Source: Bacteroidales bacterium
GTDB lineage: Bacteria; Bacteroidota; Bacteroidia; Bacteroidales; VadinHA17
DNA: 64,000 nt
Assembly: GCA_032260385.1 (NCBI GenBank)
Contig: JAVVEL010000002.1
Location: 31,776 to 95,775, forward strand
Reading direction: 5' to 3'
The notes below the pieces were generated by a model that saw only the letters and a program-made list of their open reading frames with translations, was not told the origin of the DNA and did no database searches. The position numbers were made by a program, and so were the translations under genes. Below are positions 3,547 through 25,401 of this stretch, one piece after another; within the stretch, counting starts at the first letter, position 1, and each line of letters opens with the position of its first letter.

Positions 3547-3987
3547 ATGCTTAAAGTGGATTTTCATTCGCCGGACTTTCTTCCGGATTGTGGGCTTACC
3601 TTTGTAATAATTGGAGCCAGGTACAAAGGTAACTGGATCTTCATAAGGCATAAACACAGGAAGGCATATGAGCTTCCGGCAGGACATATCAATCATTCCG
3701 AGGAGGCTGGTGATGCGGCCAGGAGGGAGCTGGAGGAAGAAACAGGGGCATTGAAATACACTATTGAGTGTATTGCAACCTATACAGTAAGTGAAGATGG
3801 GAAGGCCAGGGCAGGAAGATTATATTATGCAGTGGTCAGGGCTATGAGTGAGGAAGTGGATGATAATGAAGTTGATGAAGTCTTATTATGCGGATCGCTG
3901 CCTCAGGAATTAAGTTTTCCCTATGTTCAGGCTGCCTTATTTGCTTACCTTGAAAAATATCATGCCCGTCAGATAAATTCAAGGTAG
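3547..3987 (+). CDS. NUDIX hydrolase
   Basis: Nudix box GHINHSEEAGDAARRELEEETGA. Confidence 0.8.
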   Translation: MLKVDFHSPDFLPDCGLTFVIIGARYKGNWIFIRHKHRKAYELPAGHINHSEEAGDAARRELEEETGALKYTIECIATYTVSEDGKARAGRLYYAVVRAMSEEVDDNEVDEVLLCGSLPQELSFPYVQAALFAYLEKYHARQINSR

Positions 3988-5150
3988 ACTTCCTTAAGCC
4001 AGTTTTCTTCAAGCATTGCAGCTATCTTCTTCACAACATTACGCCTTATTTCAAGATCAACCGGAAGGTTTGGATCCTGGTGTGCAATATTGATCCTGGT
4101 ACCAATGATGAACCTGATCTCATCTGATTCCATGAATAGCCTGACTATTTTATCAGCCGGACCCTTGCCGGGTTTGTGTTTTTTATAATTCCCAAGAATT
4201 TCGGCTACTTTTTGGAGGCTCAATATACCTTCGGTGACAAGGTCTATTCCTTCAATAAAACTTTCAGGCGGCAGTTCGGGATCTTCAAAAACCATATTGT
4301 CAGTTATTTCCTTTCCTGTTTCCCTTGCTATTATATCTGCTGTAGTGCCACCGCTGATAATTACTCTTCCGCTGAAATCCCTGACCTTTGCCGCAAGTGA
4401 CTTATCGTTTTCCTTTTCATAGGGAGGTCCCGTACACAGCAGCAGCTTCCTGGGCTCCCTGAAATATATCCCGGCGCAACTTGTATCGTCCCTTGAGCTG
4501 TATTCATCGTTCTTATGAGCCATGGTGATAATTTTTGAAGCCAGTTTACCTGCTGATATTGTCGGTTCGGATGATATTAACATCCTTGAGTAGCTTATTA
4601 AATTTTCCCTGCCCCATCCAAAGGGATAGCTTTCACTTCCCATTCCGCTCTGTACAACGCCATCGGTGCATGTTATTATCCTGTCCTCCTTCTCGGCCGT
4701 GAAAGAGCACGTGAGGAGCTGCCTGCCGGCATGCTTACCTTCAGTAAGCTCTACTTTCTTCCAGGATGGTTCGTATATTCCGGTGCCCCTGATTACTATG
4801 CAGGGAGGATTGTCAAACTCCAGAATGGTGACCCTTCCGTTAACTTCAATATCGATAATGGTAAAAGTGGCATAGCTGATCTTTCTCTCAGAACATACCG
4901 GCAAAGTATTCATTATAATGGATGCAATCTTTTCTACCTCCCTGTGTTCACGAGTAAAATTTAATGCCATGGTTGCACTGAGAGTCGCCAGGATATTTGC
5001 CTTTACACCATGACCCATGCCATCGGAAAGCACGGTAATAATTCGTCCTTCCTCCCTGATTCTTCTTGACAGAAAGACATCACCACAAATCTTCTCTTCA
5101 TGATGACTTCTCTGCTGGCAGTCAACTTCTATATGAAACTCCTTGTTCAC
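3969..5150 (-). CDS. PP2C/SpoIIE-family Ser/Thr phosphatase with a ~170-aa C-terminal domain of unknown function
   Basis: CGDVF...VLSDGMGHGVKA...DGV at the N-terminus. It is the last gene of the ferredoxin / HydS-PAS / phosphatase operon, with an 11-nt gap to the upstream gene. Confidence 0.8.
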   Translation of the reverse strand: MNKEFHIEVDCQQRSHHEEKICGDVFLSRRIREEGRIITVLSDGMGHGVKANILATLSATMALNFTREHREVEKIASIIMNTLPVCSERKISYATFTIIDIEVNGRVTILEFDNPPCIVIRGTGIYEPSWKKVELTEGKHAGRQLLTCSFTAEKEDRIITCTDGVVQSGMGSESYPFGWGRENLISYSRMLISSEPTISAGKLASKIITMAHKNDEYSSRDDTSCAGIYFREPRKLLLCTGPPYEKENDKSLAAKVRDFSGRVIISGGTTADIIARETGKEITDNMVFEDPELPPESFIEGIDLVTEGILSLQKVAEILGNYKKHKPGKGPADKIVRLFMESDEIRFIIGTRINIAHQDPNLPVDLEIRRNVVKKIAAMLEENWLKEVYLEFI

Positions 5151-5161
5151 CGGCCCTGGTA

Positions 5162-7036
5162 TTAATTCTGAGTCTTATTATCTTCCTTGTTTTTCCTGTA
5201 TGATTCCAGTATCGAATTAAGCATTTTTTCAGTTTCTGAAGCTCCCTCTCCGAGGAGGAAGCCTATTTTCTGAACCATATCGAGATTCTTTTCGATCACA
5301 TCATTGATCCGCATAATTATTTCTTCCCTCTGAACCTCCGGTGAAAACATATCGCGTAATACAGCCCCGGCTATCTTGCCCTTGCTTATCGGAAACACAG
5401 AAATGTTAAGCATCGTCTCGTTAAATCTTATGTCCCTGTTAACAACCGACTCATCCTGCCTCAGAGCATAGGTAAACATGTTATAGACATTGAAGGGCAG
5501 AATGGATTTAAGATCAGCGCCCTTTAGCCCCGGTATGATTTCTGAAATATTTACTGCATCCTCTCCTGCAATATTTATAAATGACTTATTTGAATGAATT
5601 ATCTTCAGGTTCTGGTCGACAATGACCACAGCCGAGGGAAGTTTTTCAAGCATTGAATTAACCGTTTCTGAAGCTTCCTGTGTCAGCTCTTTTTCCCTGC
5701 GTGCCTGAGTTTCCGATTCGCGGAGGGCTTTTTGGGTCTCTGACAATTTTTTATTTGTTATTCTCAGTTTTTCAATATACTCCTGTTTGTTCCTGATATT
5801 ATATTTGTGACACATCTCCGGGATTGTCAGTCCCATTGCCACCGTTACTGCAAAATCACGGCACGATTCGTAACCGCAGGCACCGCAGTTGTCTTCAATC
5901 CGGTCGCCTGTTCTTCCAATTATCCTCAGTACTTCATTAATGGCTGATTCGGGAGGTTCGGGGATTCTCTGATCATCAGCCCGAAATTTTCTTGAATAAT
6001 CAAGCACACTCCACTTCTTCATATCCTTTTCCCATTGCTCCCTGTCGAGTTCTTTAAGCCTTTTATCAGTGTAGAGCCTTACCAGGTTACGCCTCCTGTA
6101 CCTTTCGTTGTGATGGTCCATCCCGGGACCCAGCAGGCAACCCTGGCAAAAGAAAAGGTTGAAATGATGCTTTATGATGTCAATGTGGCTGTGAAAATCC
6201 TTTACCGCCTCGCTTATGTCATCTTTACCGGAAGCGGTAATAATGCCACTTTCCATAACATCACGCTTTATTCCTGCCGCATATATTATCCCCGAGGGTA
6301 TTGGAAATAAGGCCCCATAATTGCCGTATGGAGGATCGAAATCAGAATTTTTTACTTTTTTTTCTTCTATCCCTGCTTCTTCGAAAAGCTTCCTCAGTTC
6401 AATGAAGGTAAGAACCGAATCAATTGTGCCCTTGCCCTTCCCGCTTAATGCCTCGTCCTTGCTGTCAATACAGGGGCCAATGTAGATAAGGTTGGTAGCT
6501 TCACCATATTTCTCCCTGGCTATCATCCCGGTAGCGACCATGGGAGACACCAGGGGAGCAAGGTTTGACGCGAGCCCCGGATAGTATTTTTCAATCATCT
6601 TTACAATGACGGGGCAATTCGATGTAATATAATACTTACCCCGGGCTGATTCGAACAAGTCGCGGTAGAGTGCAGCAATTATGTCAACCCCGAAAGAAAC
6701 TTCGTGAACATGGTCAAAACCCAGTTGTCTCACCATCGCAACAAGCTTCCTGTAGTCGGTTATGTCATCAAACTCCGAGGCTATGCTGGGGGCAACCAGC
6801 GCAATATTTTTTTTTCCGTTCCTGAGTAATTTGAGCGTTTCTTCCGTTGAATCCCTGAATCTTACAGCCCCGGCTGAGCAGGCTATAAAACATAGTCCGC
6901 AGCCAATACACCTGTCAGGGATTATGGCAGGATGCTGATTGCCCGCCTTTACCTCGATGGCCTTAACCGGACAAACCCTGATACAACTGTATGAATCGGT
7001 GCATTTATCCTGGTCAATGTATATTATGGGCTCCAT
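5162..7036 (-). CDS. Sensory-type [FeFe]-hydrogenase-like protein with a C-terminal PAS domain (HydS/HfsB-like)
   Basis: N-terminal 2x[4Fe-4S] motifs (CTDSYSCIRVCP, CIGCGLCFIACS). H-cluster motifs TSNCP, GPCIDSKDE and FFCQGCLLGPG. A Cx2Cx4Cx16C motif at aa 384-409, a coiled coil, and a PAS-like segment at about aa 460-565. Confidence 0.85.
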   Translation of the reverse strand: MEPIIYIDQDKCTDSYSCIRVCPVKAIEVKAGNQHPAIIPDRCIGCGLCFIACSAGAVRFRDSTEETLKLLRNGKKNIALVAPSIASEFDDITDYRKLVAMVRQLGFDHVHEVSFGVDIIAALYRDLFESARGKYYITSNCPVIVKMIEKYYPGLASNLAPLVSPMVATGMIAREKYGEATNLIYIGPCIDSKDEALSGKGKGTIDSVLTFIELRKLFEEAGIEEKKVKNSDFDPPYGNYGALFPIPSGIIYAAGIKRDVMESGIITASGKDDISEAVKDFHSHIDIIKHHFNLFFCQGCLLGPGMDHHNERYRRRNLVRLYTDKRLKELDREQWEKDMKKWSVLDYSRKFRADDQRIPEPPESAINEVLRIIGRTGDRIEDNCGACGYESCRDFAVTVAMGLTIPEMCHKYNIRNKQEYIEKLRITNKKLSETQKALRESETQARREKELTQEASETVNSMLEKLPSAVVIVDQNLKIIHSNKSFINIAGEDAVNISEIIPGLKGADLKSILPFNVYNMFTYALRQDESVVNRDIRFNETMLNISVFPISKGKIAGAVLRDMFSPEVQREEIIMRINDVIEKNLDMVQKIGFLLGEGASETEKMLNSILESYRKNKEDNKTQN

Positions 7037-7050
7037 AGTTGCTTGTTTAA

Positions 7051-7305
7051 TTATATATTAATACCGGGCCTATCTTTAAGTATCATTTCGATATTGCCCT
7101 TCTTAATATCCCCTATAATATCATCATTAAACGAAATATTGGGTCCTTTCTGGCAATTGCCCAGGCAATGCGAGCCCTTGATAACAAGCTTGTCCCTGAG
7201 ATGATGCTTCTCAAGAAAGGAATTAAGCTCTTCTACAATATCTTTATTCCCCCGTGCAAAGCATGAACTGCCAAGGCATATCCTTATTTCATCAGGTTTT
7301 TTCAA
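7051..7305 (-). CDS. Small thioredoxin-like [2Fe-2S] ferredoxin (NuoE/HydC-fold)
   Basis: CLGSSC...CLGNC four-Cys pattern. TTG start at 7303-7305. First gene of the minus-strand operon. Confidence 0.7.
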   Translation of the reverse strand: MKKPDEIRICLGSSCFARGNKDIVEELNSFLEKHHLRDKLVIKGSHCLGNCQKGPNISFNDDIIGDIKKGNIEMILKDRPGINI

Positions 7306-7330
7306 TTTTGTTGTTTATTTAATAACATTC

Positions 7331-7338
7331 CAAATTTA
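7331..7338 (-). promoter_or_regulatory. Bacteroidota-type -7 promoter box (TAAATTTG) for the ferredoxin / HydS-PAS / PP2C operon
   Basis: The reverse complement of caaattta matches TAnnTTTG, 26-33 nt upstream of the TTG start. Confidence 0.3.
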
Positions 7339-7504
7339 ATCAAATAATCAATACTGCTTAAAGAATTGAATTACTTTTTAAGAGCTGCAGTAATTTCTAT
7401 TTATTATTTGGTGGCTAATTGCAGGTTTATTATCGAATTGAAGTCCTGGATATATTAATACATTATATATCAATAAAATAACATTAGTATATTTAGTTAT
7501 TTTG

Positions 7505-7524
7505 AGTGTTAATAAAATAACACT
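7505..7524. promoter_or_regulatory. Candidate Rex operator (perfect 7-bp inverted repeat)
   Basis: AGTGTTA-ATAAAA-TAACACT. The inner 18-mer GTGTTAATAAAATAACAC matches the clostridial/thermotogal Rex consensus TTGTTAAnnnnTTAACAA at 11 of 14 defined positions. It lies about 60 nt upstream of the hydC ATG, and a rex gene is in the same locus. Confidence 0.4.
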
Positions 7525-7553
7525 GTTTAATGCGTAACAATAAATATATTGTT

Positions 7554-7561
7554 TATATTTG
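7554..7561 (+). promoter_or_regulatory. -7 promoter box TATATTTG for the hydCBA operon
   Basis: Matches TAnnTTTG. It sits inside a 16-mer, ATTGTTTATATTTGTA (7548-7563), that is repeated identically at 15237-15252. Confidence 0.45.
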
Positions 7562-7581
7562 TAGTGCAAGAATATTTCCAT

Positions 7582-8061
7582 ATGAAAATGGATAAAAAAA
7601 CAAGGAATAATCCAGGTAAATATAAGACTTCCGGACGGAATGACCTGATAACTCTCTTACAGGAGATTCAGGCTGAAAAGGGGTTTATTTCTGAGGAATC
7701 AATTAAAGCACTTGGGGAGCTTCTTGGAATAAGCACCACCAAAATATACGGGGTAGCAAGTTTTTATGATGGTTTTCGCTTTTCGCCCGGGGGCAGGGTA
7801 TATATACGTCTATGTAAGGGAACAGCTTGCTATGTGAACAGGACTTTTAATATTGCTGAGCTTATATCGGAAGAGCTTAAGATCAAACCGGGTGAGACAT
7901 CACCTGACGGGAAGCTCAGTATTGAGATGGTCGATTGTATGGGGGCATGTCATCTAGGGCCCCTGATAGCCGTAAATGAAAGATATTATACAATAGGTTC
8001 AGAAAGAGAACTACGACAAATACTTGGGAGGATAAAGAAGGATGAGCAGTCAGTCGTCTGA
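7582..8061 (+). CDS. hydC: [FeFe]-hydrogenase NuoE-like [2Fe-2S] subunit
   Basis: CKGTAC...CMGAC pattern and NuoE-like LLQEIQAEKGFIS. I prefer the ATG at 7582 over the TTG at 7549 in the track. Confidence 0.85.
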   Translation: MKMDKKTRNNPGKYKTSGRNDLITLLQEIQAEKGFISEESIKALGELLGISTTKIYGVASFYDGFRFSPGGRVYIRLCKGTACYVNRTFNIAELISEELKIKPGETSPDGKLSIEMVDCMGACHLGPLIAVNERYYTIGSERELRQILGRIKKDEQSVV

Positions 8062-10003
8062 ATATAATGGTGGCGATAAGAGGAAATTCCTGATTGAAGA
8101 GGTACTCGCCAATCGCTCCGATACCGTAAGCAATGAAGTACAGGCCGTCCTTGATACAATCAGCAGGGCCAGTGCAGAGCTTCCAATTATCTCAGTGTCG
8201 TACAACAGTGGAAGTATTATTTCGGGTGCTGATAAAACTTATGAGGCTCTCGGTCAATATATACTTGATTATGGTGTGCAGGCTGATATTCTAAAAGGCG
8301 GATGGTCTGGCGCTACCAACTTTGACCCTGTAGTGACAATTAAGCTGCCGGGTAAAAACTGCTTATTCTTCAGGAATATTTATCCTGAGAAAGTGGAAAG
8401 CCTTCTGAGCAGTGTCCTGCACAGTGAGATCCCGGCGGATGACTTCCTGGGCCAGGAAGGAAAGAACAAGTCAGGAGAATGGCCCGGACTGGTCTACCTT
8501 TCAGATCATCCCTTCATGAAGTTTCAGAAAAGATGGCTACTGAGTGAGGGTGAACCGTATGAACCTGCAGATATTGAGTTATATATAGCGAATGGAGGAT
8601 ATAAAACCCTTGTAAAGACTCTTAATAGTTACACAATAGAAGAAGTGTGTGACATCATTGAAAAAAGTGGTTTAAGGGGAAGGAGCGGAAGTGGCTTTCC
8701 TACGGGGCGGAAATGGAAATATGCACAGGCTTCGGACTCTGAAGTAAAATATCTTGTCTGCAATGCCCGTGAGAGCGATCCGGGGGCCTTTACAGACAAG
8801 ATGCTGATAGAAGGACAACCACACAAACTGCTGGAAGGCATGGTAATAGCATCCTATGCCATGGGGGCATCAAAGGCTTTTATCTATACTCAAAACGGTG
8901 CTGATCATACAATCTCAGTATTAAAAGAATCCATAAAACAGGCTTACGATTACGGCCTGCTGGGTGATAATATCTTCGACAGCGGATTCAGACTGGATAT
9001 AGAAGTACGGGTTGATCCCGGAGCTTTTGTCTGCGGTGAAGAAACGGCCCTGGTGGGAAGCCTTGAAGGGCGAAGGGGCATGCCACAGGTAAAACCACCC
9101 TTTCCGTCGTCTTCGGGACTGAATAACTGCCCAACCATTATCAATAACGTGGAGACCCTTATGAATGTACCGCTAATTATGAAGAACGGCCCTGAATGGT
9201 TCAGTGAGGCAGGTACTCCCGGTAGTAAGGGAACCAAGGTATTCTGGCTCTCGGGTAAGTCAGCTCTGAAGGGGCTTATTGAGGTTGAAATGGGTACCTC
9301 ATTAAGGTCGGTTATAGAGGATACAGGTGATGGCATTGCTGGTGGTAAAGAATTGAAAGCCCTGTTGATAGGAGGAGTGTCAGGCTATCTTCTCCCCGAA
9401 AAAAAGATCGATATTGCCATTGATTATGAAGAATTGAAGAAGGCCGGAGCAGGAATGGGATCGGGCGGACTCCTTATAATTGATGAGAATACCTGCCTTA
9501 TTGATCTTTCGAGATACCAGATGGAATATATGCAGAACCAGAGCTGTGGGAAATGTATACCCTGCAGGGAGGGCACATCACGAATGTTTGAAATATTATC
9601 AGCTGTGGTTAAAAAACCACCTGTTGAATCGGCAATGACAACCCTTGAGAGGTTTAAGGGTGTAATGCAGCTTGAAAATATAGCGAAGGTAATGAAGGAA
9701 ACCTCCCTTTGCGGACTGGGCCAGAATGCACCCAACCTCTTTCTTTCTGTCCTGACCGATTTCAGGGATGAACTGGAAGAACATATTTTTGACCGTCGCT
9801 GCCGGGCAAATCGCTGCCACGGCCTTCGTACCTTTGTCATAGATGTTGATAAATGCACAGGGTGTACCCTGTGTGCTGAGAAATGCCCGGTAAATGCCAT
9901 TTACGGAACCAGGTTGCAGCCTTATTTTATTGTGGATGAAAAGTGTACCGGTTGTGGTATCTGCTATGATGTGTGCAAGTTTGATGCGGTTTCAGTAAAG
10001 TAA
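8042..10003 (+). CDS. hydB: [FeFe]-hydrogenase NuoF-like flavoprotein subunit
   Basis: Motifs RGRSGSGFPTGRKW, ESDPGAF and SCGKCIPCREG...LCGLGQ, plus C-terminal CTGCTLCAEKCP and CTGCGICYDVCK. It overlaps hydC by 20 nt. Confidence 0.9.
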   Translation: MSSQSSEYNGGDKRKFLIEEVLANRSDTVSNEVQAVLDTISRASAELPIISVSYNSGSIISGADKTYEALGQYILDYGVQADILKGGWSGATNFDPVVTIKLPGKNCLFFRNIYPEKVESLLSSVLHSEIPADDFLGQEGKNKSGEWPGLVYLSDHPFMKFQKRWLLSEGEPYEPADIELYIANGGYKTLVKTLNSYTIEEVCDIIEKSGLRGRSGSGFPTGRKWKYAQASDSEVKYLVCNARESDPGAFTDKMLIEGQPHKLLEGMVIASYAMGASKAFIYTQNGADHTISVLKESIKQAYDYGLLGDNIFDSGFRLDIEVRVDPGAFVCGEETALVGSLEGRRGMPQVKPPFPSSSGLNNCPTIINNVETLMNVPLIMKNGPEWFSEAGTPGSKGTKVFWLSGKSALKGLIEVEMGTSLRSVIEDTGDGIAGGKELKALLIGGVSGYLLPEKKIDIAIDYEELKKAGAGMGSGGLLIIDENTCLIDLSRYQMEYMQNQSCGKCIPCREGTSRMFEILSAVVKKPPVESAMTTLERFKGVMQLENIAKVMKETSLCGLGQNAPNLFLSVLTDFRDELEEHIFDRRCRANRCHGLRTFVIDVDKCTGCTLCAEKCPVNAIYGTRLQPYFIVDEKCTGCGICYDVCKFDAVSVK

Positions 10004-10008
10004 TTATT

Positions 10009-11724
10009 ATGCTGATAACTATAGAAGTAAACAGAAAGAAACTGAAGGCTGAAAAGGGAGAGACAATCCTCAAGGCACTGAACAGGAATGGTATAAACAT
10101 ACCCACCCTCTGTCGCCTCAGGGGTCTTACACCAACGGGAGCATGCAGGATCTGTGTCGTGGAGGTGGAAGGGGAGGATATGCTTGTTACAGCCTGTTCT
10201 GAACCTGTAAGGGAATGGATGAAGATAAAAACTCATTCTCCCAGGGTTATCAGGGCAAGAAAGTCTATAGTAGAATTGTTGCTCTCAAATCATCCTGACA
10301 ATTGCCTGTACTGTGACAGGAATCTTAACTGTGAATTACAGAGCTTAGCCGGTGAGCTCAACATCCGGGAACGCCGTCTGAGTGGCAATAAACTGACTCT
10401 CAAACTGGACCAGTCAAGCCCTGCCATAACAAGAGAATTGTCAAAATGTATCTTATGTGGCCGCTGTGTTCGTATTTGTGAGGAAGTGGTGGGGGTAAAT
10501 ACCCTGGATTTTATCGGAAAGGGAAGGACAACACATATAGGCACCACAATGGATAAGGATTTTAATTTTTCCAGTTGCATACATTGTGGTCAGTGTGTCA
10601 CTGTATGTCCTACCGGTGCTCTCCATGAAAAACACAATATAAGGGAGGTCCAGGATTACCTCACAAAGAAAGACACACTTAAGGTAATCCAGTTTTCTCC
10701 CCTGGTGGCCTTCTCTGTTGCCCGGGAGATGGGCTTAAAGTATTCTCAGAACTTTGATAAGAAGCTCAGTGAGGCGCTTGTCCGGATAGGCTTTGACAGG
10801 GTTTATTACGCAGGTTTTGGTTCCGATATAATGATAAATGAATTGACGGAGCAGCTGGTAAATAATAAGGCCGGTAAATTGAACCAGACTATTTATACTT
10901 CCCATTGCCCTGCATGGGTGAAATATGCCGAACAATTTATGCCCGGTCTTCTTGAAAAGTTATCTGATTTGAAGTCGCCTCAACAAATTACAGGAGCCCT
11001 GATTAAAACCCTGGTAAGCGCCAGGGAGGAAGTAAGTCCTGAAAATATATATTCTGTGTCAGCCACCCTCTGTACGGCGGCCAAGTATGAAGCCAGGCGG
11101 GATGTAATGACAAGAAAGGGAATAAGCGATATAGAAACCATACTGACAGTGCGTGAACTGGTACAGCTACTGAAACTTTATGGTATAAATATGGATATGC
11201 TTGACGGAAGAAATATTGATGAACCACTGAACCTTTCCAGTTTCTCGGCTTTAATAACCGAGGTTTCCGGGGGTCTGACAGAGGCACTTGTAAAAAATAT
11301 TGCCCGGGACAAGGGCTTTGAGCTCTCTGCTTCTGATATAAGGAAATTAAGAACGGCAGGCGATTTCAGGGAACTTATGATAAGAGCCGGGGAACATGAG
11401 TACAACTTTGCTCTTGTGGATGGTCTTACCGGGCTTGATAAGCTCAGTAACAGGATGGGATCAGTTCATTATGACCTGGTTGAAATAATGGTCTGCCAGT
11501 CAGGATGCGTCAATGGAGGAGGGGTTAACAGTGATGAGAACGGTGAGTCAGTAAGGGACCGTATTAAGATGGTATATAAAAGTGAAGGAAATACTGCTAT
11601 CAGCATGCCAATGGATAATCCGGCACTCAGAAATTTTTATGAAAAATGGCTACCCTTTGATAAAGACTTGTCAGATAAAAAGATATTCAAAAACAAATAT
11701 TCAAAAAAGAACGTCCTTCTATGA
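10009..11724 (+). CDS. hydA: CpI-architecture (M3-type) [FeFe]-hydrogenase large subunit with non-canonical H-cluster environment motifs
   Basis: N-terminal 2Fe-2S (CRLRGLTPTGACRIC), His-ligated and 2x[4Fe-4S] motifs, then TSHCPAW, TLCTAAKYE and EIMVCQSGCVNGGG. The C-terminal tail resembles a small-subunit domain. Confidence 0.9.
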   Translation: MLITIEVNRKKLKAEKGETILKALNRNGINIPTLCRLRGLTPTGACRICVVEVEGEDMLVTACSEPVREWMKIKTHSPRVIRARKSIVELLLSNHPDNCLYCDRNLNCELQSLAGELNIRERRLSGNKLTLKLDQSSPAITRELSKCILCGRCVRICEEVVGVNTLDFIGKGRTTHIGTTMDKDFNFSSCIHCGQCVTVCPTGALHEKHNIREVQDYLTKKDTLKVIQFSPLVAFSVAREMGLKYSQNFDKKLSEALVRIGFDRVYYAGFGSDIMINELTEQLVNNKAGKLNQTIYTSHCPAWVKYAEQFMPGLLEKLSDLKSPQQITGALIKTLVSAREEVSPENIYSVSATLCTAAKYEARRDVMTRKGISDIETILTVRELVQLLKLYGINMDMLDGRNIDEPLNLSSFSALITEVSGGLTEALVKNIARDKGFELSASDIRKLRTAGDFRELMIRAGEHEYNFALVDGLTGLDKLSNRMGSVHYDLVEIMVCQSGCVNGGGVNSDENGESVRDRIKMVYKSEGNTAISMPMDNPALRNFYEKWLPFDKDLSDKKIFKNKYSKKNVLL

Positions 11725-13706: not shown

Positions 13707-14091
13707 GAAGATTACAGTTTTTGTTGTTGATGACGACCCGGATTACCTTTTTCAAACGGTAGTCCACCTTGAAAAAGCGGGATATAATGTTATTAGCGCT
13801 GTGAGTCAAAAAGAAGCCGAGGATATCATAGATACGGTAAAACCGGATATTGCATTGTTTGACCTTATGATGGAACAGGATGACAGTGGTTTTATACTTT
13901 GCTATAAACTGAAGAAAAAATATCCGGATCTGCCCGTAATAATTGCTACCTCTGTCTCCAGGGAGACAGGCCTGTCTTTCGGCCTGGATTCGGAGGAGGA
14001 AAGAAGGTGGATAAAGGCAGATGCTTACCTTGAAAAGGGAGTACGGGCTGATCAGCTTAACGAAGAAATTAAACGTCTGTTAAAAATTTGA
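13699..14091 (+). CDS. Stand-alone response-regulator receiver protein
   Basis: VVDDD, FDLMM (phospho-Asp), IIATS and EKG motifs. No output domain. It overlaps the upstream kinase gene by 8 nt. Confidence 0.85.
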   Translation: MNKKITVFVVDDDPDYLFQTVVHLEKAGYNVISAVSQKEAEDIIDTVKPDIALFDLMMEQDDSGFILCYKLKKKYPDLPVIIATSVSRETGLSFGLDSEEERRWIKADAYLEKGVRADQLNEEIKRLLKI

Positions 14092-14092
14092 A

Positions 14093-15229
14093 ATGGCTGA
14101 ACTAAAGATATTGATAGTGGATGATGAAGCCGGAATCAGATCAGGTGTCAGCAGGATTTTGAACAGGTTCAGGGTAAACTATCCTTTTATGGATGAAGTC
14201 TATACTTTTAAGGTGATTGAGGCTGAGACAGGTGAAAAGGGTATTGAGATAATTGACACTGAAAGGCCTGATATAGTATTGCTTGATAATAAACTTCCAG
14301 GAATTTCCGGCGTTGAAGTGCTTGACTATATTAAGCAGAAAAATTATGACATAGTTGTGGCGATGATTACATCTTATGCATCGCTTGATGTGGCATTGAG
14401 GGCTACAAGGGACGGAGCCACCGACTTTATACCCAAACCATTTACACCCCAGGAACTTAAATCCTCGATCGAGAATATAAGCAAGCAGCTGTATCTTAAA
14501 AGGATAACAAGCAGTATGAATGAGGAAGGAAAGAAGATCCGGTTCAGGTTCCTGTCGGTTTTGTCACATGAGCTTAAGTCGCCCCTGAATGCCGTGGAAG
14601 GATATCTGTATATGATGAGGGACCGCGAAGCAGGAGACAATATGAACGATTATACACCCATGATCGAAAGATCAATACAGCGCATACAGGGAATGCGTAC
14701 CCTGATCATGGATCTGCTCGATTTTACCAAGATAAGACTGGAAGTGAAGAAAGATAAGGTGCTTGATTTAGATCCTGCCTTGATTATGAAACAATGTATA
14801 GAAACTATTAATCCACTTGCCATACAGAAAGATGTCTCAATAGTAATTGATAAAAAGTCAGATATCATAATATCAGCAGATGAGGAGGATATAAATATCA
14901 TCTTCAACAACCTGCTTTCAAATGCGGTGAAGTATAACAAAGAGGGGGGTAGTATTTTTATTACAATCGACAGAAAAGTGAACGACGCTGTAATAGAAGT
15001 GAAAGACACTGGCATTGGAATAAGCAGTGAAGACCAGCAGGTTCTTTTTAATGAGTTCGTACGGATCAAAAATGATAAAACACGGAATATTACCGGAAGC
15101 GGACTGGGTTTGTCTATAGTGAAAAAGATCGTCGCTTTGTATAATGGTTCGATAACAGTCGACAGCAGGCCTGACGAAGGAAGCGTTTTTACATTGAAAC
15201 TTCCAATCCGGCAGGAAAAAGGAGGATAA
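14093..15229 (+). CDS. Hybrid receiver-histidine kinase (REC-HisKA-HATPase_c)
   Basis: IVDDE...LLDNKLPG receiver, SHELKSPLN H-box, NLLSNAVKYN, DTGIGI and GSGLGLSIV. Confidence 0.85.
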   Translation: MAELKILIVDDEAGIRSGVSRILNRFRVNYPFMDEVYTFKVIEAETGEKGIEIIDTERPDIVLLDNKLPGISGVEVLDYIKQKNYDIVVAMITSYASLDVALRATRDGATDFIPKPFTPQELKSSIENISKQLYLKRITSSMNEEGKKIRFRFLSVLSHELKSPLNAVEGYLYMMRDREAGDNMNDYTPMIERSIQRIQGMRTLIMDLLDFTKIRLEVKKDKVLDLDPALIMKQCIETINPLAIQKDVSIVIDKKSDIIISADEEDINIIFNNLLSNAVKYNKEGGSIFITIDRKVNDAVIEVKDTGIGISSEDQQVLFNEFVRIKNDKTRNITGSGLGLSIVKKIVALYNGSITVDSRPDEGSVFTLKLPIRQEKGG

Positions 15230-15242
15230 TTATTCTATTGTT

Positions 15243-15250
15243 TATATTTG
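15243..15250 (+). promoter_or_regulatory. -7 promoter box TATATTTG upstream of rex
   Basis: Part of the 16-mer ATTGTTTATATTTGTA (15237-15252), which is identical to 7548-7563. It lies 22 nt before the rex ATG. Confidence 0.4.
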
Positions 15251-15272
15251 TACGGTTGACAAAATCATAAGG

Positions 15273-15893
15273 ATGAAAGAACTACCAGGAAAAACTGTTG
15301 AAAGGCTGAGTGGTTACCGCAGGAATCTTCTGGGCTACCTGTCTGCCGGTAATAGTTATATCTACTCCCATGAGCTGGCTGCCCTGCTTCATATTACGGC
15401 AGTGCAGGTAAGAAGAGACCTGATGCTTATAGGCTATTCCAGTGTTCAGAAAAAAGGCTATGATGTAAAGGAGCTCATTGATACCATAGCTTCAATAATT
15501 GATTCTGAACAAGGCCAGAATATTGCAGTAATAGGCATTGGAAATCTCGGCCGCGCAATAACTTCCTATTTCAAGGGTAAAAGATCCAAACTCAATATTG
15601 TTGCTTCATTCGACAATGACCCACAGAAAGTCAACAGGGTAATAGCCGGAGTTAGATGCTATCCTGTTGAACAAATGGAGCATATTGTGGCAGAACAGAA
15701 TATCACGATTGCCTTGCTTACCATACCTCCCGATTTTGCCAGGCCTGTTGCCGATGCAGCCATAAGGGCCGGGATAAAAGGCATCCTGAATTTTACAACC
15801 GTTCCGCTAAATGTGCCACCAAATGTCTATCTTGAAGAGTATGACATGATTACGTCAATAGAGAAAGTTGCATATTTTGTAAAAGAAGGATAA
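15273..15893 (+). CDS. rex: Redox-sensing transcriptional repressor Rex
   Basis: N-terminal winged helix (RLSGYRR...VQVRRDL), a Rossmann motif IGIGNLGRA, and GIKGILNFT. Confidence 0.85.
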   Translation: MKELPGKTVERLSGYRRNLLGYLSAGNSYIYSHELAALLHITAVQVRRDLMLIGYSSVQKKGYDVKELIDTIASIIDSEQGQNIAVIGIGNLGRAITSYFKGKRSKLNIVASFDNDPQKVNRVIAGVRCYPVEQMEHIVAEQNITIALLTIPPDFARPVADAAIRAGIKGILNFTTVPLNVPPNVYLEEYDMITSIEKVAYFVKEG

Positions 15894-15908
15894 GGATAGG
15901 AGCAGGGG

Positions 15909-16835
15909 ATGAAAGTATATTATGGATTGGAGGAGGTGGAGAAAATAAAGAATCCTGTTATTACAACAGGTACCTTCGATGGTGTGCATTTTGGGCATAA
16001 GACCATCCTCGGAAGAATCAAAAAACTTGCTGAACAATATGAGGGAGAATCAGTCCTCATAAGTTTCTATCCCCATCCCCGCAAGGTGCTTTATCCTTCT
16101 ACGGAAGGTAAGTGCCTCCATTTGATAACAACTCTGGATGAGAAAATAGACCTACTTGAAAAAGAGGGACTCGATAACCTTATCCTGCTTGAATTTACCA
16201 AAGAATTTGCAAGGGTATCAAGCAGTGAATTCATTGAAAAATATATATCTTCCAAACTCCGGCCCAGGGTGATTGTTGTTGGGTATAACCACCATTTTGG
16301 ACACAACAAGGAAGGTAATTACCAGTACTTAAAGTCAATATCTGCCTTGTATGGCTTTGATACTGAAGAGATTCCCGAACAGGAAGTGCTGAATGAGACG
16401 GTGAGTTCAACGCAAATAAGAAAGGCACTGGTCGAAGGATATATTCAAAGGGTAAACGCCTATCTCGATCACTTTTATTTTATTAGCGGCTCACCCGGAA
16501 AGTGGGAACCGGATACTCATCTTAATGACCATACCGGAATAGTGCTGAGGATTGATGATGAGGATAAACTTCTTCCACGTCAGGGTGCTTACGCCGTGAG
16601 TGTCCCCGGGGATGGGTCCAAAACACACGGGCTGGCTTTTATCCCGCAAAAAACGGAAGGAAGAAGAGAGGTGGCAATTATTTTATTCGAAAACTTTTCT
16701 CCGGGCATTAATATTACCCACAGGTTAAGGATTAATTTTCATAAAAGGATGGACGGTAAAATACAGTTTGATTCACCTGAATCATTACGGGTTCCTGAGA
16801 AGTTAATCAATGATACCATGGAACTTATTTATTGA
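15909..16835 (+). CDS. ribF: RibF-like FAD synthetase with an apparently degenerate riboflavin-kinase domain
   Basis: The N-terminal half has GTFDGVHFGH and SSTQIR. The C-terminal half aligns with the kinase fold (GAYAV...) but lacks the G-x-x-LGFPTAN motif. Confidence 0.7.
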   Translation: MKVYYGLEEVEKIKNPVITTGTFDGVHFGHKTILGRIKKLAEQYEGESVLISFYPHPRKVLYPSTEGKCLHLITTLDEKIDLLEKEGLDNLILLEFTKEFARVSSSEFIEKYISSKLRPRVIVVGYNHHFGHNKEGNYQYLKSISALYGFDTEEIPEQEVLNETVSSTQIRKALVEGYIQRVNAYLDHFYFISGSPGKWEPDTHLNDHTGIVLRIDDEDKLLPRQGAYAVSVPGDGSKTHGLAFIPQKTEGRREVAIILFENFSPGINITHRLRINFHKRMDGKIQFDSPESLRVPEKLINDTMELIY

Positions 16836-16919
16836 AGGATATGATATAATTCATTGTAATCGCTTCCTTCATTTACTTTATTTGCAGTACGTTTAATCAG
16901 TATAAGTCTAAATAACGAT

Positions 16920-18344
16920 ATGAAATTCAATCCCGAAAAATTATCAATAAGGGATCAGAGGATGAAAGCCTTCATTGATCCTGATGAAATCTGGAATATA
17001 ATAAACAACACAAAGCCGGACAGGCAAAGGGTGAAGGAGGTAATAGCCAAATCGCTTGACAAGAACAGGCTGACCCTGGAAGAAACGGCTGTGCTTATAA
17101 ATGCTGACGACCCCGGCTTGATTGAGGAGATAAAGGCCGGGGCACGCGCCCTGAAGGAAAAAGTGTACGGAAACAGGATCGTTCTCTTTGCTCCCTTATA
17201 TATAGGTAATTTTTGCAGCAATAATTGCCTGTACTGTGGTTTCAGGTCAAGTAACACCGAGGCCGTGAGAAGGACACTGACCGATGATGAGATAGTTAAA
17301 GAAGTATCGGCACTTGAGGATAACGGGCAGAAGCGCCTTATCCTGGTTTACGGTGAGCATGCCAAATATTCAGCTGAATACATAGCACATACCGTGAAAC
17401 TGGTTTATGGAGTCAAAAAGGGCAGGGGTGAGATAAGGAGGGTAAACATCAATGCTGCTCCACTTGATATAGAGGGCTTCCGAACAGTAGGTGAAGCAGG
17501 TATAGGGACTTACCAGATCTTCCAGGAAACATATCATCCTGAAGCTTATAAATGGTATCACCTTGCCGGCAAAAAGAGCGATTATGACTGGAGGCTGACA
17601 GGTCTTGACAGGGCACAGGAGGCAGGAGTTGATGACGTAGGCATTGGCGCCTTATTCGGATTGTATGACTGGCGTTTCGAAGTGCTGGGCCTGGTACGTC
17701 ATACAAACCACCTGGAGGCATGCTATAATGTGGGCCCCCACACAATCTCATTCCCGAGGCTCAAGGATGCCGCCACAATAAATATGAACAGGAATTTTGA
17801 AGTGAAAGATGATGAATTCAAGCGACTTGTGGCTATACTCAGACTGGCTGTGCCCTATACGGGTATGATACTGACAGCAAGGGAGAGCCATGATGTGAGA
17901 AGGGAAGTGATAAAGTATGGCGTTTCCCAGATTGACGGCGGTACAAAAATTGAACTTGGCTCATATTCTGATCTTAAGAATGAGCAGCAGAACCTTAACA
18001 GGGAACAGTTCATGATCAATGATGCCAGGTCGCTGGCTGAAGTGATTGACGAATTGCTCGATGATAACTTTATACCTTCTTTCTGTACCGCATGCTACAG
18101 GCTGGGAAGAACAGGAGAACATTTCATGGAGTTTTCCGTAGCCGGATTTATAAAAAGATATTGCTCACCTAATGCTGCACTTACCCTCGCAGAATACCTG
18201 GTCGATTATGCAGATGAACAGCTTGCTGAAAAAGGATGGAGGGCAATAGACCGGGGACTGGCAGCCTTAGATGAAGATGTAGCATTAAAAACAAAGGAGA
18301 GAATTGAAAGGATAAAGCAGGGTGATAGAGATCTTTATTTTTAA
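16920..18344 (+). CDS. hydG: [FeFe]-hydrogenase H-cluster radical-SAM maturase HydG
   Basis: CSNNCLYCGF radical-SAM motif and C-terminal CTACx22C (CTACYRLGRTGEHFMEFSVAGFIKRYC). Confidence 0.9.
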   Translation: MKFNPEKLSIRDQRMKAFIDPDEIWNIINNTKPDRQRVKEVIAKSLDKNRLTLEETAVLINADDPGLIEEIKAGARALKEKVYGNRIVLFAPLYIGNFCSNNCLYCGFRSSNTEAVRRTLTDDEIVKEVSALEDNGQKRLILVYGEHAKYSAEYIAHTVKLVYGVKKGRGEIRRVNINAAPLDIEGFRTVGEAGIGTYQIFQETYHPEAYKWYHLAGKKSDYDWRLTGLDRAQEAGVDDVGIGALFGLYDWRFEVLGLVRHTNHLEACYNVGPHTISFPRLKDAATINMNRNFEVKDDEFKRLVAILRLAVPYTGMILTARESHDVRREVIKYGVSQIDGGTKIELGSYSDLKNEQQNLNREQFMINDARSLAEVIDELLDDNFIPSFCTACYRLGRTGEHFMEFSVAGFIKRYCSPNAALTLAEYLVDYADEQLAEKGWRAIDRGLAALDEDVALKTKERIERIKQGDRDLYF

Positions 18345-18364
18345 ATTTATACGAATAACTAAGT

Positions 18365-18892
18365 ATGGCAAAAATAGTAGCAATAAGGGTAATAGACAGG
18401 ATAAAGGAGGCAGGACACACACAGGATGTTCTGAGTAAGCATTCTTCAATAATTAAAACACGGCTCGGCTTTCATGAACTAAATGAGGACAGATGCAGCA
18501 GGGAAGGCTATATTTTGCTTTATCTCAGGGATAATGCGAAGGGGCGGAGTGACTTTTTGAAGGATCTCGATAAGATTTACGGCATCGAGATAAAGGAAAT
18601 GAACCTGCTTGCCGGGCCGGTTAAGCCTGCTTCCATCCCTGACGGATCTGCCGTTACCGTGGTGGGCTTGGTGGTAAATAACAGGTCAGATATTGCCAGT
18701 GAAGTCCAGCGAGCACTCACCTTATACGGTTGTACAATAAGAACACGTATGGGTATCAATGAAGAAGACCATGGCCACGACACCGGTCTTATCCTGCTGG
18801 AGCTTAAGGGCGATAATTCAGAGATGAACAGTCTGCTAAAACGGCTGGAACAAATTGAAAACGTAATTGTTGGAGTTATCTCCTTCAGTTGA
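18365..18892 (+). CDS. Tandem TM1266-like (ACT/NikR-C-like) putative iron-only hydrogenase system regulator
   Basis: Two ~80-aa halves share a beta-alpha-beta pattern (VAIRVIDR...TRLGF...GYILLYL and VVGLVVNN...TRMGI...GLILLEL). It lies directly after hydG, as TM1266-family genes do. Confidence 0.5.
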   Translation: MAKIVAIRVIDRIKEAGHTQDVLSKHSSIIKTRLGFHELNEDRCSREGYILLYLRDNAKGRSDFLKDLDKIYGIEIKEMNLLAGPVKPASIPDGSAVTVVGLVVNNRSDIASEVQRALTLYGCTIRTRMGINEEDHGHDTGLILLELKGDNSEMNSLLKRLEQIENVIVGVISFS

Positions 18893-18907
18893 GATATACC
18901 GGATATC

Positions 18908-18998
18908 AGCCTTAGCCTCAGCTTCAGCCTTAGCCTCAGCTTCAGACTTAGCCTTAGCTTAAGCCTTAGCCAGCCTCAGCCTCAGCCTCAGCTTCAGC
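18908..18998. repeat. Hexanucleotide tandem repeat (AGCYTN)n, about 15 units
   Basis: agcctt agcctc agcttc agcctt agcctc agcttc agactt agcctt agctta agcctt ... agcctc x3 agcttc. It fills the gap between convergent genes and contains the stop codon of the minus-strand gene. Confidence 0.9.
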
Positions 18999-20115: not shown

Positions 20116-20124
20116 TAGTTTGAG

Positions 20125-20197
20125 ATGTTAAAATTACTTCGTGAGCTCGCAAGCTCGGTTCATGGTCGTTTCATCCTTCAGGATTAATTTATTTTTA
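20125..20197. repeat. Copy 2 of the ~65-bp repeated intergenic element; the partner is at 789-857
   Basis: Same 37-nt core and hairpin as copy 1. It sits between the hydE stop (20209) and the downstream gene start (20115). Confidence 0.75.
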
Positions 20198-20208
20198 TTC
20201 AGGGGAAT

Positions 20209-21324
20209 TCATTTACCTTCTTCTTTCTGCCTGCGCAAATAATGTAGTGAATCACCCCATTCACCATAGCCCGGCTCCGCGTTAACCTCCCTCAGTCCCA
20301 TCGTCAGGTTTTTAATAAAATCATCCAGTGAGTCACCTGTGAGCGGTTTGTTTTCATAGAGATAATAATCGTCGCGGTAGAGGCCCGGGGTTATATTGGG
20401 CATTATAACATTTGCACCTATGCTGACAGCTTTTTCCCTGCCCTTTGGATCTATTGCCTGCAGGGCTGTGGATGCAGCTATATTGATGTCTTTCATAAGT
20501 ACCCGTAACACTGCTATCATCTTCAGGGAAAGATCGAAGCGGTCTGCAAGGGGGAGAAGCTCATCCTTATATTTTGCCAGCGGTGTACCGGAGTGCTCAA
20601 TGTAAGGGCCCATACCGACCATATCGATATCAAATTTTTTCATAAAGAGAAGGTCGGCTGCAAGATCTTCATAGGTCTGGAAGGGCAGGCCTATCATCAC
20701 ACCTGTGCCCGCATGGTACCTGAGCCTCTTTAAGGTGTGGAGACATTCCAGCCTCCTGTGATAACTGTGCAGTTCATCATCCGGGTGCAGCTTTGCATAT
20801 AGCCCGGGATTGGATGCTTCAATACGGAGCAGGTACCTGTGAGCACCTGCTTCATACCATTCGCGGTAAACTTCCTCGCTCTGTTCTCCCAGGGAAAGTG
20901 TAATACCCAGCCTGCCATCCGAAAGGTCCTTTATTGATTTCAGCAGGCGTGTTACCCTGAATGTAAAAGATGGATTACTCCTCTCACCCGACTGTAAAAC
21001 TATCGACCCGAAATTATTTTCAAATGCATAACGGGCAGCGTCCAGTACTTCTTTGTCGCTAAGGGTATATCTTTTGAATTTTTTATTATCCCTGCGAATG
21101 CCGCAATAGAGGCAATTCTTTTCACAGACATTTGATAATTCTATTAATCCCCTGAAATAAACCTTATTGCCGGAATATTTATGCTTTAAGCGGGCTGACT
21201 CCCTGAAAAGTTCATCCCTGTCATCCCCTTCGGTCCTGAGCAGTCTTATTATTTTATCCGCATCAAACTTTTTACCCTTCAATATGTCTTTTATCATGCT
21301 TCTCATTCTCTTTATTGGGATCAC
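20209..21324 (-). CDS. hydE: [FeFe]-hydrogenase H-cluster radical-SAM maturase HydE
   Basis: CEKNCLYCGIRRDN motif and a BioB-like fold pattern. The true start may be one of the internal Met residues at aa 7 or 10. Confidence 0.8.
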   Translation of the reverse strand: MIPIKRMRSMIKDILKGKKFDADKIIRLLRTEGDDRDELFRESARLKHKYSGNKVYFRGLIELSNVCEKNCLYCGIRRDNKKFKRYTLSDKEVLDAARYAFENNFGSIVLQSGERSNPSFTFRVTRLLKSIKDLSDGRLGITLSLGEQSEEVYREWYEAGAHRYLLRIEASNPGLYAKLHPDDELHSYHRRLECLHTLKRLRYHAGTGVMIGLPFQTYEDLAADLLFMKKFDIDMVGMGPYIEHSGTPLAKYKDELLPLADRFDLSLKMIAVLRVLMKDINIAASTALQAIDPKGREKAVSIGANVIMPNITPGLYRDDYYLYENKPLTGDSLDDFIKNLTMGLREVNAEPGYGEWGDSLHYLRRQKEEGK

Positions 21325-21526
21325 AAATATAGTAAGAAAGGATGATATAATAAGTCAAAAGTTTATACCACAATTCACTGTTTGTCCTGGTTCGACTCCC
21401 GTGCTGAGAACATTGATAAGAGCTTCAAATAAGTCCTCCTGAATATGTTAAGGGAGGCCGCCTGGTTAACAGGGTTTGATGGCATCAGCTTATTCACTAA
21501 ATTTGCTCATAAACAAGCAAAGTACA

Positions 21527-21973: not shown

Positions 21974-21991
21974 TAACCAGTAATATATAAT

Positions 21992-25378: not shown

Positions 25379-25401
25379 GAAAATGAGTAAAACTGATATT
25401 T

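Follow-up and report, generated by a model that had tools for sequence, protein, structure and literature searches.

Organization of the locus

The window analysed here is a 64-kb stretch of the genome of a Bacteroidales bacterium (contig JAVVEL010000002.1, positions 31,776 to 95,775), and it contains a cluster of genes encoding a HydABC-type [FeFe] hydrogenase complex, two putative H2-sensing paralogues (HydS-PAS and HydS-HK), several signal transduction proteins, and the repressor Rex. Gene calls are based on an open reading frame (ORF) listing together with Pfam and NCBIfam scans of the window proteins; the domain scan covered the gene set at 3.5–24.4 kb and, outside this interval, all ORFs of 150 aa or longer. 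An earlier interpretation made from the DNA letters (the sequence-only reading) described three genes with H-cluster domains accompanied by rex, hydG, and hydE, and these, together with all of the other genes, junctions, and domains that it listed, are present.

The genes are arranged in two divergent groups. The first is transcribed rightwards (plus strand) and begins with hydC (7582–8061), which encodes a NuoE-like [2Fe-2S] subunit (PF01257, E = 1.7e-39; NuoE-family NCBIfam models), followed by the NuoF-like hydB (8042–10003; Complex1_51K, NADH_4Fe-4S, and two Fer4 matches; TIGR01959, 419 bits) and hydA (10009–11724), coding for a 571-aa HydA-like subunit with M3 architecture whose best PDB matches are bifurcating HydA structures. 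The hydA stop and the start of the next gene share an ATGA overlap at 11721–11724, and this gene (11721–13706) encodes HydS-HK, a 661-aa protein in which a sensor module is joined to HisKA and HATPase domains (Fe_hyd_lg_C, E = 1.5e-41; HisKA, HATPase_c, and iron-sulfur (FeS) matches). It overlaps by 8 nt the gene for a 130-aa stand-alone receiver (REC; 13699–14091; Response_reg, E = 5e-15), and one base lies between the latter and the gene for a 378-aa REC-HisKA-HATPase hybrid (REC-HK; 14093–15229; Pfam matches). Checking of the coordinates bore out the proposed coupling of hydA to the kinase gene and the overlapping or abutting junctions downstream of it. The group continues with rex (15273–15893), encoding the NADH/NAD+-sensing repressor (NF003995, 198 bits with a cut-off of 126; Put_DNA-bind_N and CoA_binding domains; a GIGNLG dinucleotide-binding motif in the translation), and a gene for a RibF-like FMN adenylyltransferase paralogue (15909–16835; FAD_syn, E = 1.6e-44).

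The second group is transcribed leftwards (minus strand). Its first gene encodes a small thioredoxin-like [2Fe-2S] ferredoxin (Fdx; 84 aa; 7051–7305; PF01257, E = 8.4e-11) and is followed after 14 nt by that for HydS-PAS, a putative H2 sensor of 624 aa (5162–7036; Fe_hyd_lg_C, E = 2.3e-40; Fer4 and PF04060 FeS matches), and after a further 11 nt by that for a 393-aa RsbU/SpoIIE-type Ser/Thr phosphatase (PP2C; 3969–5150; Pfam SpoIIE, E = 1.3e-14).

The two groups diverge from a control region (7306–7581) that was read directly from the sequence; the length of 276 bp given for it earlier is right if hydC starts at the ATG at 7582. It contains a Rex operator-like palindrome, TGTTAATAAAATAACA (7507–7522), located 75 nt upstream of this ATG, and on the plus strand TATATTTG (7554–7561), a candidate promoter element fitting TAnnTTTG, which we take to be the Bacteroidetes -7 consensus. 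An alternative TTG at 7549 is unlikely to be the hydC start because of this TAnnTTTG box. A scan for sigma-70 promoters and terminators (54 against 38±7 and 18 against 16±5 in shuffled sequences) barely exceeded the shuffled background and, being unsuited to Bacteroidota as well, was set aside.

Distribution and conservation of the cluster

Relatives of HydS-HK that share its architecture number in the thousands in the databases, and a scan of GTDB species representatives gave at least 555 stretches coding for relatives; an exact-sequence look-up of HydS-HK itself returned no record. The best 80 of these stretches, in which every ORF was mapped onto the window proteins, are all from metagenome-assembled genomes (MAGs) of Bacteroidales with 64–90% identity, and the closest relative is in Bacteroidetes bacterium HyVt-32 (90% identity). 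The DNA is thus confirmed as coming from the Bacteroidota. Practically every one of the 80 loci with enough flanking sequence, and also loci L001 and L003, has the same order: a rightwards NUDIX gene, the leftwards PP2C, HydS-PAS, and Fdx genes, and the rightwards HydC, HydB, HydA, HydS-HK, REC, REC-HK, Rex, and RibF genes. The 11-gene block from PP2C to RibF recurs in nearly all 80 genomes, with HydG, TM1266, and HydE usually near it. The cluster is thus lineage-wide and conserved and no one-off, and the synteny is so strong that the genes form one functional unit, as the sequence-only reading had supposed.

The same reading had put the arrangement forward as undescribed, and this does not hold. 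The cluster is common by the neighbourhood check, and the accessible part of Zheng & Huang 2024 (mSystems; PMC11406978) contains the layout. It describes a 'sub-type V' of BfuABC clusters in which a group C3 bfuT with a His-kinase domain lies 3′ of bfuA (e.g. Caldithrix abyssi). For Perlabentimonas gracilis, Tenuifilum thalassicum, and Williamwhitmania taraxaci it notes another bfuT, 5′ of bfuC, and calls the implications of this unclear. These clusters resemble the window in having a sensor kinase gene 3′ of hydA, a second sensor 5′ of hydC, Bacteroidota hosts, and a HydA of M3a type; the published account is a genomic note, and the three cultured genomes are set beside the window by description. 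In the accessible part of that paper we found nothing on a Rex operator, receiver genes, a PP2C fold, or a HydA without C299 and K358. The layout is therefore catalogued though uncharacterised, so the sequence-only reading, which had named prior characterisation of this exact arrangement as grounds for its own rejection, fails on this point in part. As far as the accessible text goes, the window locus joins a catalogued, experimentally untouched cluster type.

The two HydS paralogues

HydS-PAS consists of a 2x[4Fe-4S] domain, the H-domain, a Cx2Cx4C...C FeS motif, a coiled coil, a PAS domain, and two C-terminal helices. HydS-HK has the same sensor module joined through the coiled coil directly to HisKA and HATPase. 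[quoted passage not shown]

Conservation was assessed in alignments of orthologues of HydA (71), HydB (65), HydS-HK (80), HydS-PAS (53), Fdx (54), PP2C (54), REC (77), and REC-HK (73); residue positions 279–500 in the HydA and HydS comparisons follow CpI numbering. The predicted H-cluster ligands are C141, C189, C297, and C300 in HydS-PAS, and the corresponding cysteines of HydS-HK are C144, C192, C293, and C296. The four are invariant in the HydS-PAS orthologues and nearly so in those of HydS-HK, where a single Ser occurs at C355. Loss of these cysteines would have spoken against the sequence-only reading, and they are kept in all three H-domain proteins of the locus. The C-terminal CxxCx4C...C site is also kept in both sensors, each of which is matched by Fer4 and PF04060.

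The sensors differ from one another around the predicted cluster. Position 299 is Asn in HydS-PAS (53/53) and Asp in HydS-HK and its orthologues, position 353 is Gly in both, position 358 is Ser, Ala, or Asn in HydS-PAS and Lys in HydS-HK, and position 497 is Phe and Leu, respectively. The orthologue motifs are GPC[IL]D[ASN]K (L2) and NLFFCxGC (L3) for HydS-PAS, and [ST]SDCP, GPC[VI]AKK, and ELLCCxGC for HydS-HK, with a kinase H-box of IAHELNNP. Replacement of C299, M353, and M497 separates putative sensory from prototypical enzymes, and Asp at 299 is the sole substitution there reported to retain activity in the prototypical enzymes (PMC10055695). Both window sensors fit this pattern of replacements. 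With the four cysteines, the second-sphere replacements, the N-terminal 2x[4Fe-4S] domain, and the C-terminal FeS site, both have the traits of group C and by sequence are putative sensory [FeFe] hydrogenases.

The PAS assignment comes from the fold and not from the sequence. At the default threshold Pfam finds no PAS domain in the 624-aa HydS-PAS, and none is precomputed for 120 orthologues; below threshold, five PAS families match its C-terminal stretch weakly (E = 0.004–0.4), and a profile search of the region against PDB sequences gives weak matches only (Aer2 PAS, E = 0.023). The last 214 residues, modelled by AlphaFold with the use of orthologues, have a long helix, a beta-beta-helices-beta-beta-beta arrangement, and two more helices, with a predicted local distance difference test (pLDDT) value of ~80 in the PAS part. 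All 50 of the top 50 Foldseek matches in the PDB are PAS domains (Aer2, NifL, and PYP among them), each with a probability of 1.00. The model topology and the uniform Foldseek result together identify a PAS domain in HydS-PAS, as had been claimed from the sequence.

HydDB does name subgroups C1 (kinase-linked), C2, and C3 (phosphatase-linked), in line with the sequence-only reading. Dividing the two window sensors between C1 and C3 is probably wrong, because they share 35% identity and because the accessible part of Zheng & Huang 2024 (PMC11406978) assigns both PAS-bearing and kinase-bearing BfuT to HydDB group C3.

HydABC and the HydA pocket

HydA aligns without gaps to its best PDB matches, which are Thermoanaerobacter kivui HydA1 (8a6t; E = 2e-115), A. 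woodii HydA1, and T. maritima HydA, and it scores 523.6 bits against the curated A6 model NF040763, under the cut-off of 765. Cysteines 300, 355, 496, and 500 are invariant in the 71 orthologues, M497 and S319 are conserved, and the canonical L3 motif (ExMxCxxGC) is kept in the window protein.

Much of the remaining pocket is non-canonical. The L1 motif TSCCP reads TSHCP in the window and ISACP in most orthologues, and L2, canonically MPCxxKK, reads TLCTAAK in the window and TPCxAMK in most orthologues. Position 299 is His in the window and Ala in 63 orthologues (His in three, others in the rest), and never Cys; position 353 is Thr in the window and Thr or Ser in the orthologues, and position 354 of the window protein is Leu; position 358 is Ala in the window and Met in 66 orthologues (Ala in three, with Asn and Gly also found), and never Lys. 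In the proton path, the canonical E279 is replaced by Leu in the window and mostly by Ile or Leu among orthologues (Thr, Val, or Met in six), never being Glu; E282 is replaced by Gln in the window and in most orthologues; and R286 is Asn in the window, with Arg or Lys in most orthologues. The effect attributed to losing K358 comes from mutagenesis work, and caution is in order here.

The complex has the group A3 traits of an M3-type HydA, a NuoF-like HydB with an FMN site and C-terminal 2x[4Fe-4S], and a NuoE-like HydC, and departs from group A3 in the L1 and L2 motifs, in E279/E282/R286, and in the N-terminal [2Fe-2S] cysteines of HydB. The thioredoxin-like domain at the HydB N-terminus (window 8042–8650; residues 1–200) is without cluster cysteines, reading VSYNSGSIISGA and GWSGATNFDP, and its Cys motifs are replaced by Ser or Thr in the 65 HydB orthologues.

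The HydA clade is isolated. When 1.84 billion cluster representatives were searched exhaustively with HMMER, one cluster was found at 58% identity and the next best at no more than 44%, and the nearest neighbours are almost all non-canonical at the pocket positions. A rough neighbor-joining tree (midpoint-rooted; clusters at 50% identity) places the window HydA inside a group of 24 clusters, 0/24 of which are canonical. P0121, the representative with the highest score in this search, is a 4122-residue protein in which HydA-like sequence (30% identity) occurs seven times, and it represents either a giant fusion of several hydrogenases or an artefact of assembly or gene calling.

In its residues the HydA pocket looks sensor-like, and this may not be an ordinary catalytic HydA, because the proton-relay and second-sphere residues are missing. 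Of the hydrogenase that the sequence-only reading placed between the two sensors, the hydCBA genes are thus confirmed and its ordinary character is in part not, the alignment of 71 orthologues being non-canonical at the pocket. The accessible part of the Hydrogenedentota paper of Zheng & Huang (PMC11406978) reports variation in the P1 motif only as Cys/Ser at the fifth position, and the HydA substitutions are unmentioned there.

Rex and its probable operator

The Rex consensus is the 18-bp TTGT(G/T)AA-N4-TT(C/A)ACAA (PMC6391272, PMC5886521), and in Caldicellulosiruptor bescii electrophoretic mobility shift assays show that Rex binds the promoters of [FeFe]-hydrogenase, hydG, and rex genes (PMC6391272). 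The window palindrome fits this consensus and is nearly identical to the site predicted at -78 of T. saccharolyticum hfsABCD, TTGTTAATAAATTAACTA (PMC5886521). It is the sole match to TGTTAANNNNTTAACA at no more than one mismatch in the 64-kb window.

The weight of the site rests on its cross-species conservation, since the single window match is not significant by itself. A match to TGT[TG]A-N6-T[AC]ACA is present in all 58 of the orthologous control regions scanned, mostly 65–80 nt upstream of hydC; these regions are mostly ~160–300 nt long (range 126–1693), and in one related locus the classical TGTGAAAATATTCACA lies upstream of hydC. The background, taken from 1.46 Mb of related loci, is ~1 per 80 kb: among 105 matches there, 64 are at hydC, 23 are ~79 nt upstream of the receiver gene, and 18 are elsewhere. 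Rex very probably represses the plus-strand operon and thereby itself, as the conserved position of the palindrome suggests.

The 23 receiver-gene sites are also Rex-type palindromes, situated 77–81 nt upstream of that gene in 23 of the 63 loci whose sensor kinase and receiver genes are more than 50 nt apart (e.g. L008:11969–12148; also L009, L016, L017, L022, L027, and L038). In part of the clade the receiver, REC-HK, rex, and ribF genes therefore seem to form a unit of their own, autoregulated by Rex. In the window the sensor kinase and receiver genes overlap and leave no such gap.

Signalling proteins

The residues expected of two-component proteins are in place and are conserved in 73–80 orthologues. 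The H-box and the N, G1, and G2 boxes are all present in the kinases; the stand-alone receiver keeps the DD pair, D55, T84, and K113 (77 orthologues), and REC-HK keeps D65, T93, K115, and H160 in the H-box LSHELK (73 orthologues).

An AlphaFold model of PP2C (pLDDT 81) has as its best Foldseek matches RsbU (3ke6), SpoIIE (5mqh/5ucg), RsbX (3w40), RssB, and SiaA, and the modelled fold is that of the partner-switching RsbU/SpoIIE/RsbX class. The Asp motifs that bind the metal (GD, SDGMGHG, DG, and DD) are kept throughout 54 orthologues. The protein ends in an alpha/beta domain of ~160 residues for which Pfam gives no match and for which the whole-model Foldseek list is taken up by PP2C matches; a PDB profile match of this domain to FliG (E = 0.003) was judged not credible. 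The CxxxxC...CxxxC cysteines of Fdx are conserved in 54 orthologues, and its gene occupies the position of HfsA.

A model for the locus and alternative explanations

We favour, with somewhat better than even confidence, a Rex-repressed hydrogenase operon with feedback from H2 through two parallel sensors. This model builds on the parts, their catalytic residues, the synteny, and the operator conservation found by sequence analysis and comparison. The hydC-hydB-hydA-hydS(HK)-rec-rec/hk-rex-ribF operon shares its control region with the divergent fdx-hydS(PAS)-pp2c operon. At a low NADH/NAD+ ratio Rex would sit on the palindrome at 7507–7522 and the plus-strand operon, rex included, would be repressed; a build-up of NADH would free Rex from the site. 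H2 would react slowly at the H-cluster of the HydS paralogues, where the Cys relay is missing, and the redox state would pass through the C-terminal [4Fe-4S] site to the coiled coil. In HydS-HK this would alter autophosphorylation, with the phosphoryl group passing to the single-domain receiver, to the receiver of REC-HK, or to both, and REC-HK, as a second kinase, would signal to an unlinked response regulator. The PAS domain of HydS-PAS would control the adjacent PP2C, which would dephosphorylate a protein encoded elsewhere, and Fdx would be the electron partner of HydS-PAS. HydABC would be an H2 enzyme linked to NADH and ferredoxin, its proton path altered and its turnover probably slow, and the circuit would tune its level to H2 pressure and NADH load. 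The H2 responsiveness, the direction of signalling, and every target other than the Rex site are what we infer.

Several observations weigh against this model. All 71 HydA orthologues lack K358, C299, and the proton-path Glu, and HydA may not be a working hydrogenase. Among the window ORFs scanned there is no DNA-binding response regulator or receiver with an output domain, and neither these ORFs nor the conserved block include a STAS protein or an RsbW-like kinase; two of the three output routes are guesses for this reason. The sequence-only reading had likewise found no DNA-binding response regulator or anti-sigma partner and had called the output route unknown; the first part stands, and the second gives way in part, Rex being a DNA-binding output with a conserved operator. 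The window Rex site viewed singly is one match where 0.25 would be expected, and 22 of 100 shuffled sequences contain one or more. The fdx-HydS(PAS)-PP2C arm is absent from five loci (L047, L053, L068, L070, and L084) that have 10 kb upstream of the hyd genes, so the two sensors are not obligatorily paired and the PAS arm is an optional module; in the four of these loci in which hydC was mapped, this gene keeps its upstream Rex box. Signalling has been demonstrated for no putative sensory [FeFe] hydrogenase (PMC8924675).

An alternative that we consider unlikely, and the strongest of those weighed, takes HydABC as a third sensing module that equilibrates slowly between H2 and the NADH/ferredoxin pools and passes its reading on to HydS-HK, possibly a fourth subunit. 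On this view the entire locus would serve regulation, and H2 would be evolved in reality by a group B or A1 enzyme whose genes lie elsewhere. The sensor-type replacements at 299, 353, 358, and 279/282 in all HydA orthologues fit this, as do the 24 clusters lacking a canonical member, the loss of the HydB N-terminal [2Fe-2S] site, the hydA/hydS-HK ATGA overlap, which is found in the window and in L003, and the name 'T subunit' used for the sensor in the accessible part of Zheng & Huang (PMC11406978). In Bacteroides a group B enzyme carried H2 production, and the A3 catalytic subunit of B. thetaiotaomicron had low activity and minimal transcription (PMC12578642), which is possibly a related observation. 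However, the full bifurcating electron-transfer architecture is kept (the HydA FeS domains, the FMN site, and the HydB 2x[4Fe-4S]), M497 and L3 are canonical, and A. woodii HydA1, which is reportedly an active enzyme, also departs from TSCCP in the alignment, with TSCSP. Moreover, activity remains measurable in TmHydS despite its Ala at 299 (PMC10055695). It is doubtful that HydABC is a non-catalytic or very slow, NADH/ferredoxin-referenced H2 sensor that would make the locus, with the HydS pair and Rex, a purely regulatory three-input device; equally tentative is the suggestion that such a HydABC clade belongs to a wider radiation of at least 24 clusters with M3 architecture that lack the relay Cys, M353, and K358.

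Less probable still is that the HydS paralogues sense not H2 but cellular redox state (the ferredoxin/NADH poise, or O2/CO) through their FeS clusters, with the H-domain as a degenerate scaffold. Each has three accessory [4Fe-4S] sites, and there is a dedicated small ferredoxin; HydS-PAS lacks K358 and has a shortened CxxC L3 loop, and in some group C1 proteins the H-cluster motifs are hardly findable, according to the accessible part of PMC11406978. A degenerate scaffold is difficult to square with the conservation of the four H-cluster cysteines, with the linkage of hydG and hydE to the cluster in most loci, with the binding of an H-cluster in vitro by the related TmHydS and TamHydS, and with HydS-HK, which keeps K358 and has the activity-retaining Asp at 299 (PMC10055695). 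A purely historical co-location, in which the sensors act on separate unlinked targets (e.g. chemotaxis or fermentation genes) and not on hydCBA, would suit the lack of any output domain in the locus that ties either sensor to the hydC promoter, the five loci without a PAS arm, and the action of the T. saccharolyticum hfs phenotype on adhE (PMC5707799), but it is the most improbable of the three given that gene order is kept at only 64–67% protein identity over ~80 species, that the genes overlap or abut, and that the promoter region is shared.

Relationship to other systems

The proposed Rex-repressed, doubly sensed operon has counterparts in several described systems. Thermoanaerobacterium saccharolyticum hfsABCD (Shaw 2009; Eminoglu 2017, PMC5707799) is alike in the order of a small FeS protein, a PAS-bearing sensory hydrogenase, and a third gene, hfsA-hfsB-hfsC corresponding to fdx-sensor-pp2c in the window. 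The product of the third gene, HfsC, is presumably a PP2C. It carries the label 'sporulation protein' (PMC5886521). As well as the predicted Rex site, hfs has a regulatory phenotype in genetics (PMC5707799), and deletion in hfs alters hydrogenase and adhE expression (PMC5707799; PMC8924675). It differs in that hfsD is a group B hydrogenase, absent here, in having no kinase-fused sensor and no receivers, and in its Firmicute host.

The HydS proteins of Thermotoga maritima and Ruminococcus albus share with the window sensors the N-terminal 2x[4Fe-4S] domain, the H-domain, the C-terminal four-Cys FeS site, and PAS; C299, M353, and M497 are replaced in them, and they are linked to bifurcating-type HydABC and to Ser/Thr signalling proteins. 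The window HydS-PAS has Asn at 299 and lacks K358, whereas TmHydS has Ala at 299, and the second window paralogue has a complete histidine kinase instead of PAS. The [NiFe] systems HoxBC-HoxJ-HoxA and HupUV-HupT-HupR follow the same logic, in which a slow sensor hydrogenase acts through a histidine kinase on hydrogenase expression (PMC5707799), but their metal centre and family are unrelated, sensor and kinase are separate proteins, and the cluster encodes the response regulator, a known DNA-binding activator. Rex regulons of anaerobic Firmicutes and Thermotogae also have the palindrome upstream of [FeFe]-hydrogenase genes, hydG, and rex; in contrast to these, the host here is a member of the Bacteroidales and rex lies inside an operon apparently under its own control.

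Flanking genes

The RibF-like gene lies directly 3′ of rex in nearly all related loci. In its product FAD_syn is the only domain detected, the Pfam scan detecting no riboflavin-kinase domain, and all NCBIfam RibF models score under their cut-offs; it may be a dedicated flavin-handling paralogue for HydB. Beyond it are hydG (16920–18344, plus strand; TIGR03955, 490.8 bits with a cut-off of 312), encoding a maturase, and a plus-strand gene (18365–18892) for a tandem CPF_0552/TM1266-like small regulator-type protein (NF052672, E = 8.7e-44, in two stretches; TIGR03959; Pfam TM1266-like, in two stretches). These are followed on the opposite strand by a saccharopine-dehydrogenase-like gene and the maturase gene hydE (20209–21324, minus strand; TIGR03956, 318.9 bits with a cut-off of 254.6). 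HydF was looked for among the window ORFs scanned and was not found.

At the other end, the NUDIX gene (3547–3987, plus strand) converges on the PP2C gene, with which it shares 19 nt at the 3′ ends (3969–3987), and it is within the conserved block in most related loci. In one genome (L001:471–1766, on a 1.8-Mb contig) a DDE transposase (DDE_Tnp_1/DDE_Tnp_1_4) lies between the NUDIX and PP2C genes. A proline racemase gene is at 973–2016.

The region beyond hydE (21476–29423) encodes a C_GCAxxG_C_C redox protein, an ADP-forming acyl-CoA synthetase (22237–24366), an aminotransferase (25402–26715), and a three-subunit 2-oxoacid:ferredoxin oxidoreductase (26992–29423), which would supply reduced ferredoxin and NADH for a HydABC-type enzyme to dispose of. 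Further to the right, a 231-aa protein (56355–57050) matches the GPP34 (Golgi phosphoprotein 3) family (E = 1e-26), which is odd-looking for a bacterium.

Implications

Taken as a whole, the sequence-only reading was right about the gene unit and the paired sensors, and not about the novelty, the ordinary HydA, or a fully unknown output. What is new here is the sensor-like pocket of HydA, the layout itself being already in the literature (PMC11406978, in its accessible part). HydS-HK provides the most direct assay on offer for [FeFe]-based H2 sensing, by autophosphorylation and phosphotransfer with and without H2. The sensing question can be tested, since hundreds of Bacteroidales species carry the cluster, as reportedly do three cultured relatives.

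The carriers are Bacteroidales from sediments, digesters, and wetlands, and the conserved Rex operator provides a concrete and checkable link between NADH load and hydrogenase expression in the Bacteroidota. Metagenome surveys count HydA genes of this kind as 'bifurcating, H2-producing', and a sensor-like clade may be miscounted in this way; should the HydABC of this clade prove slow or regulatory, the capacity for H2 production read from metagenomic 'group A3' counts would be too high.

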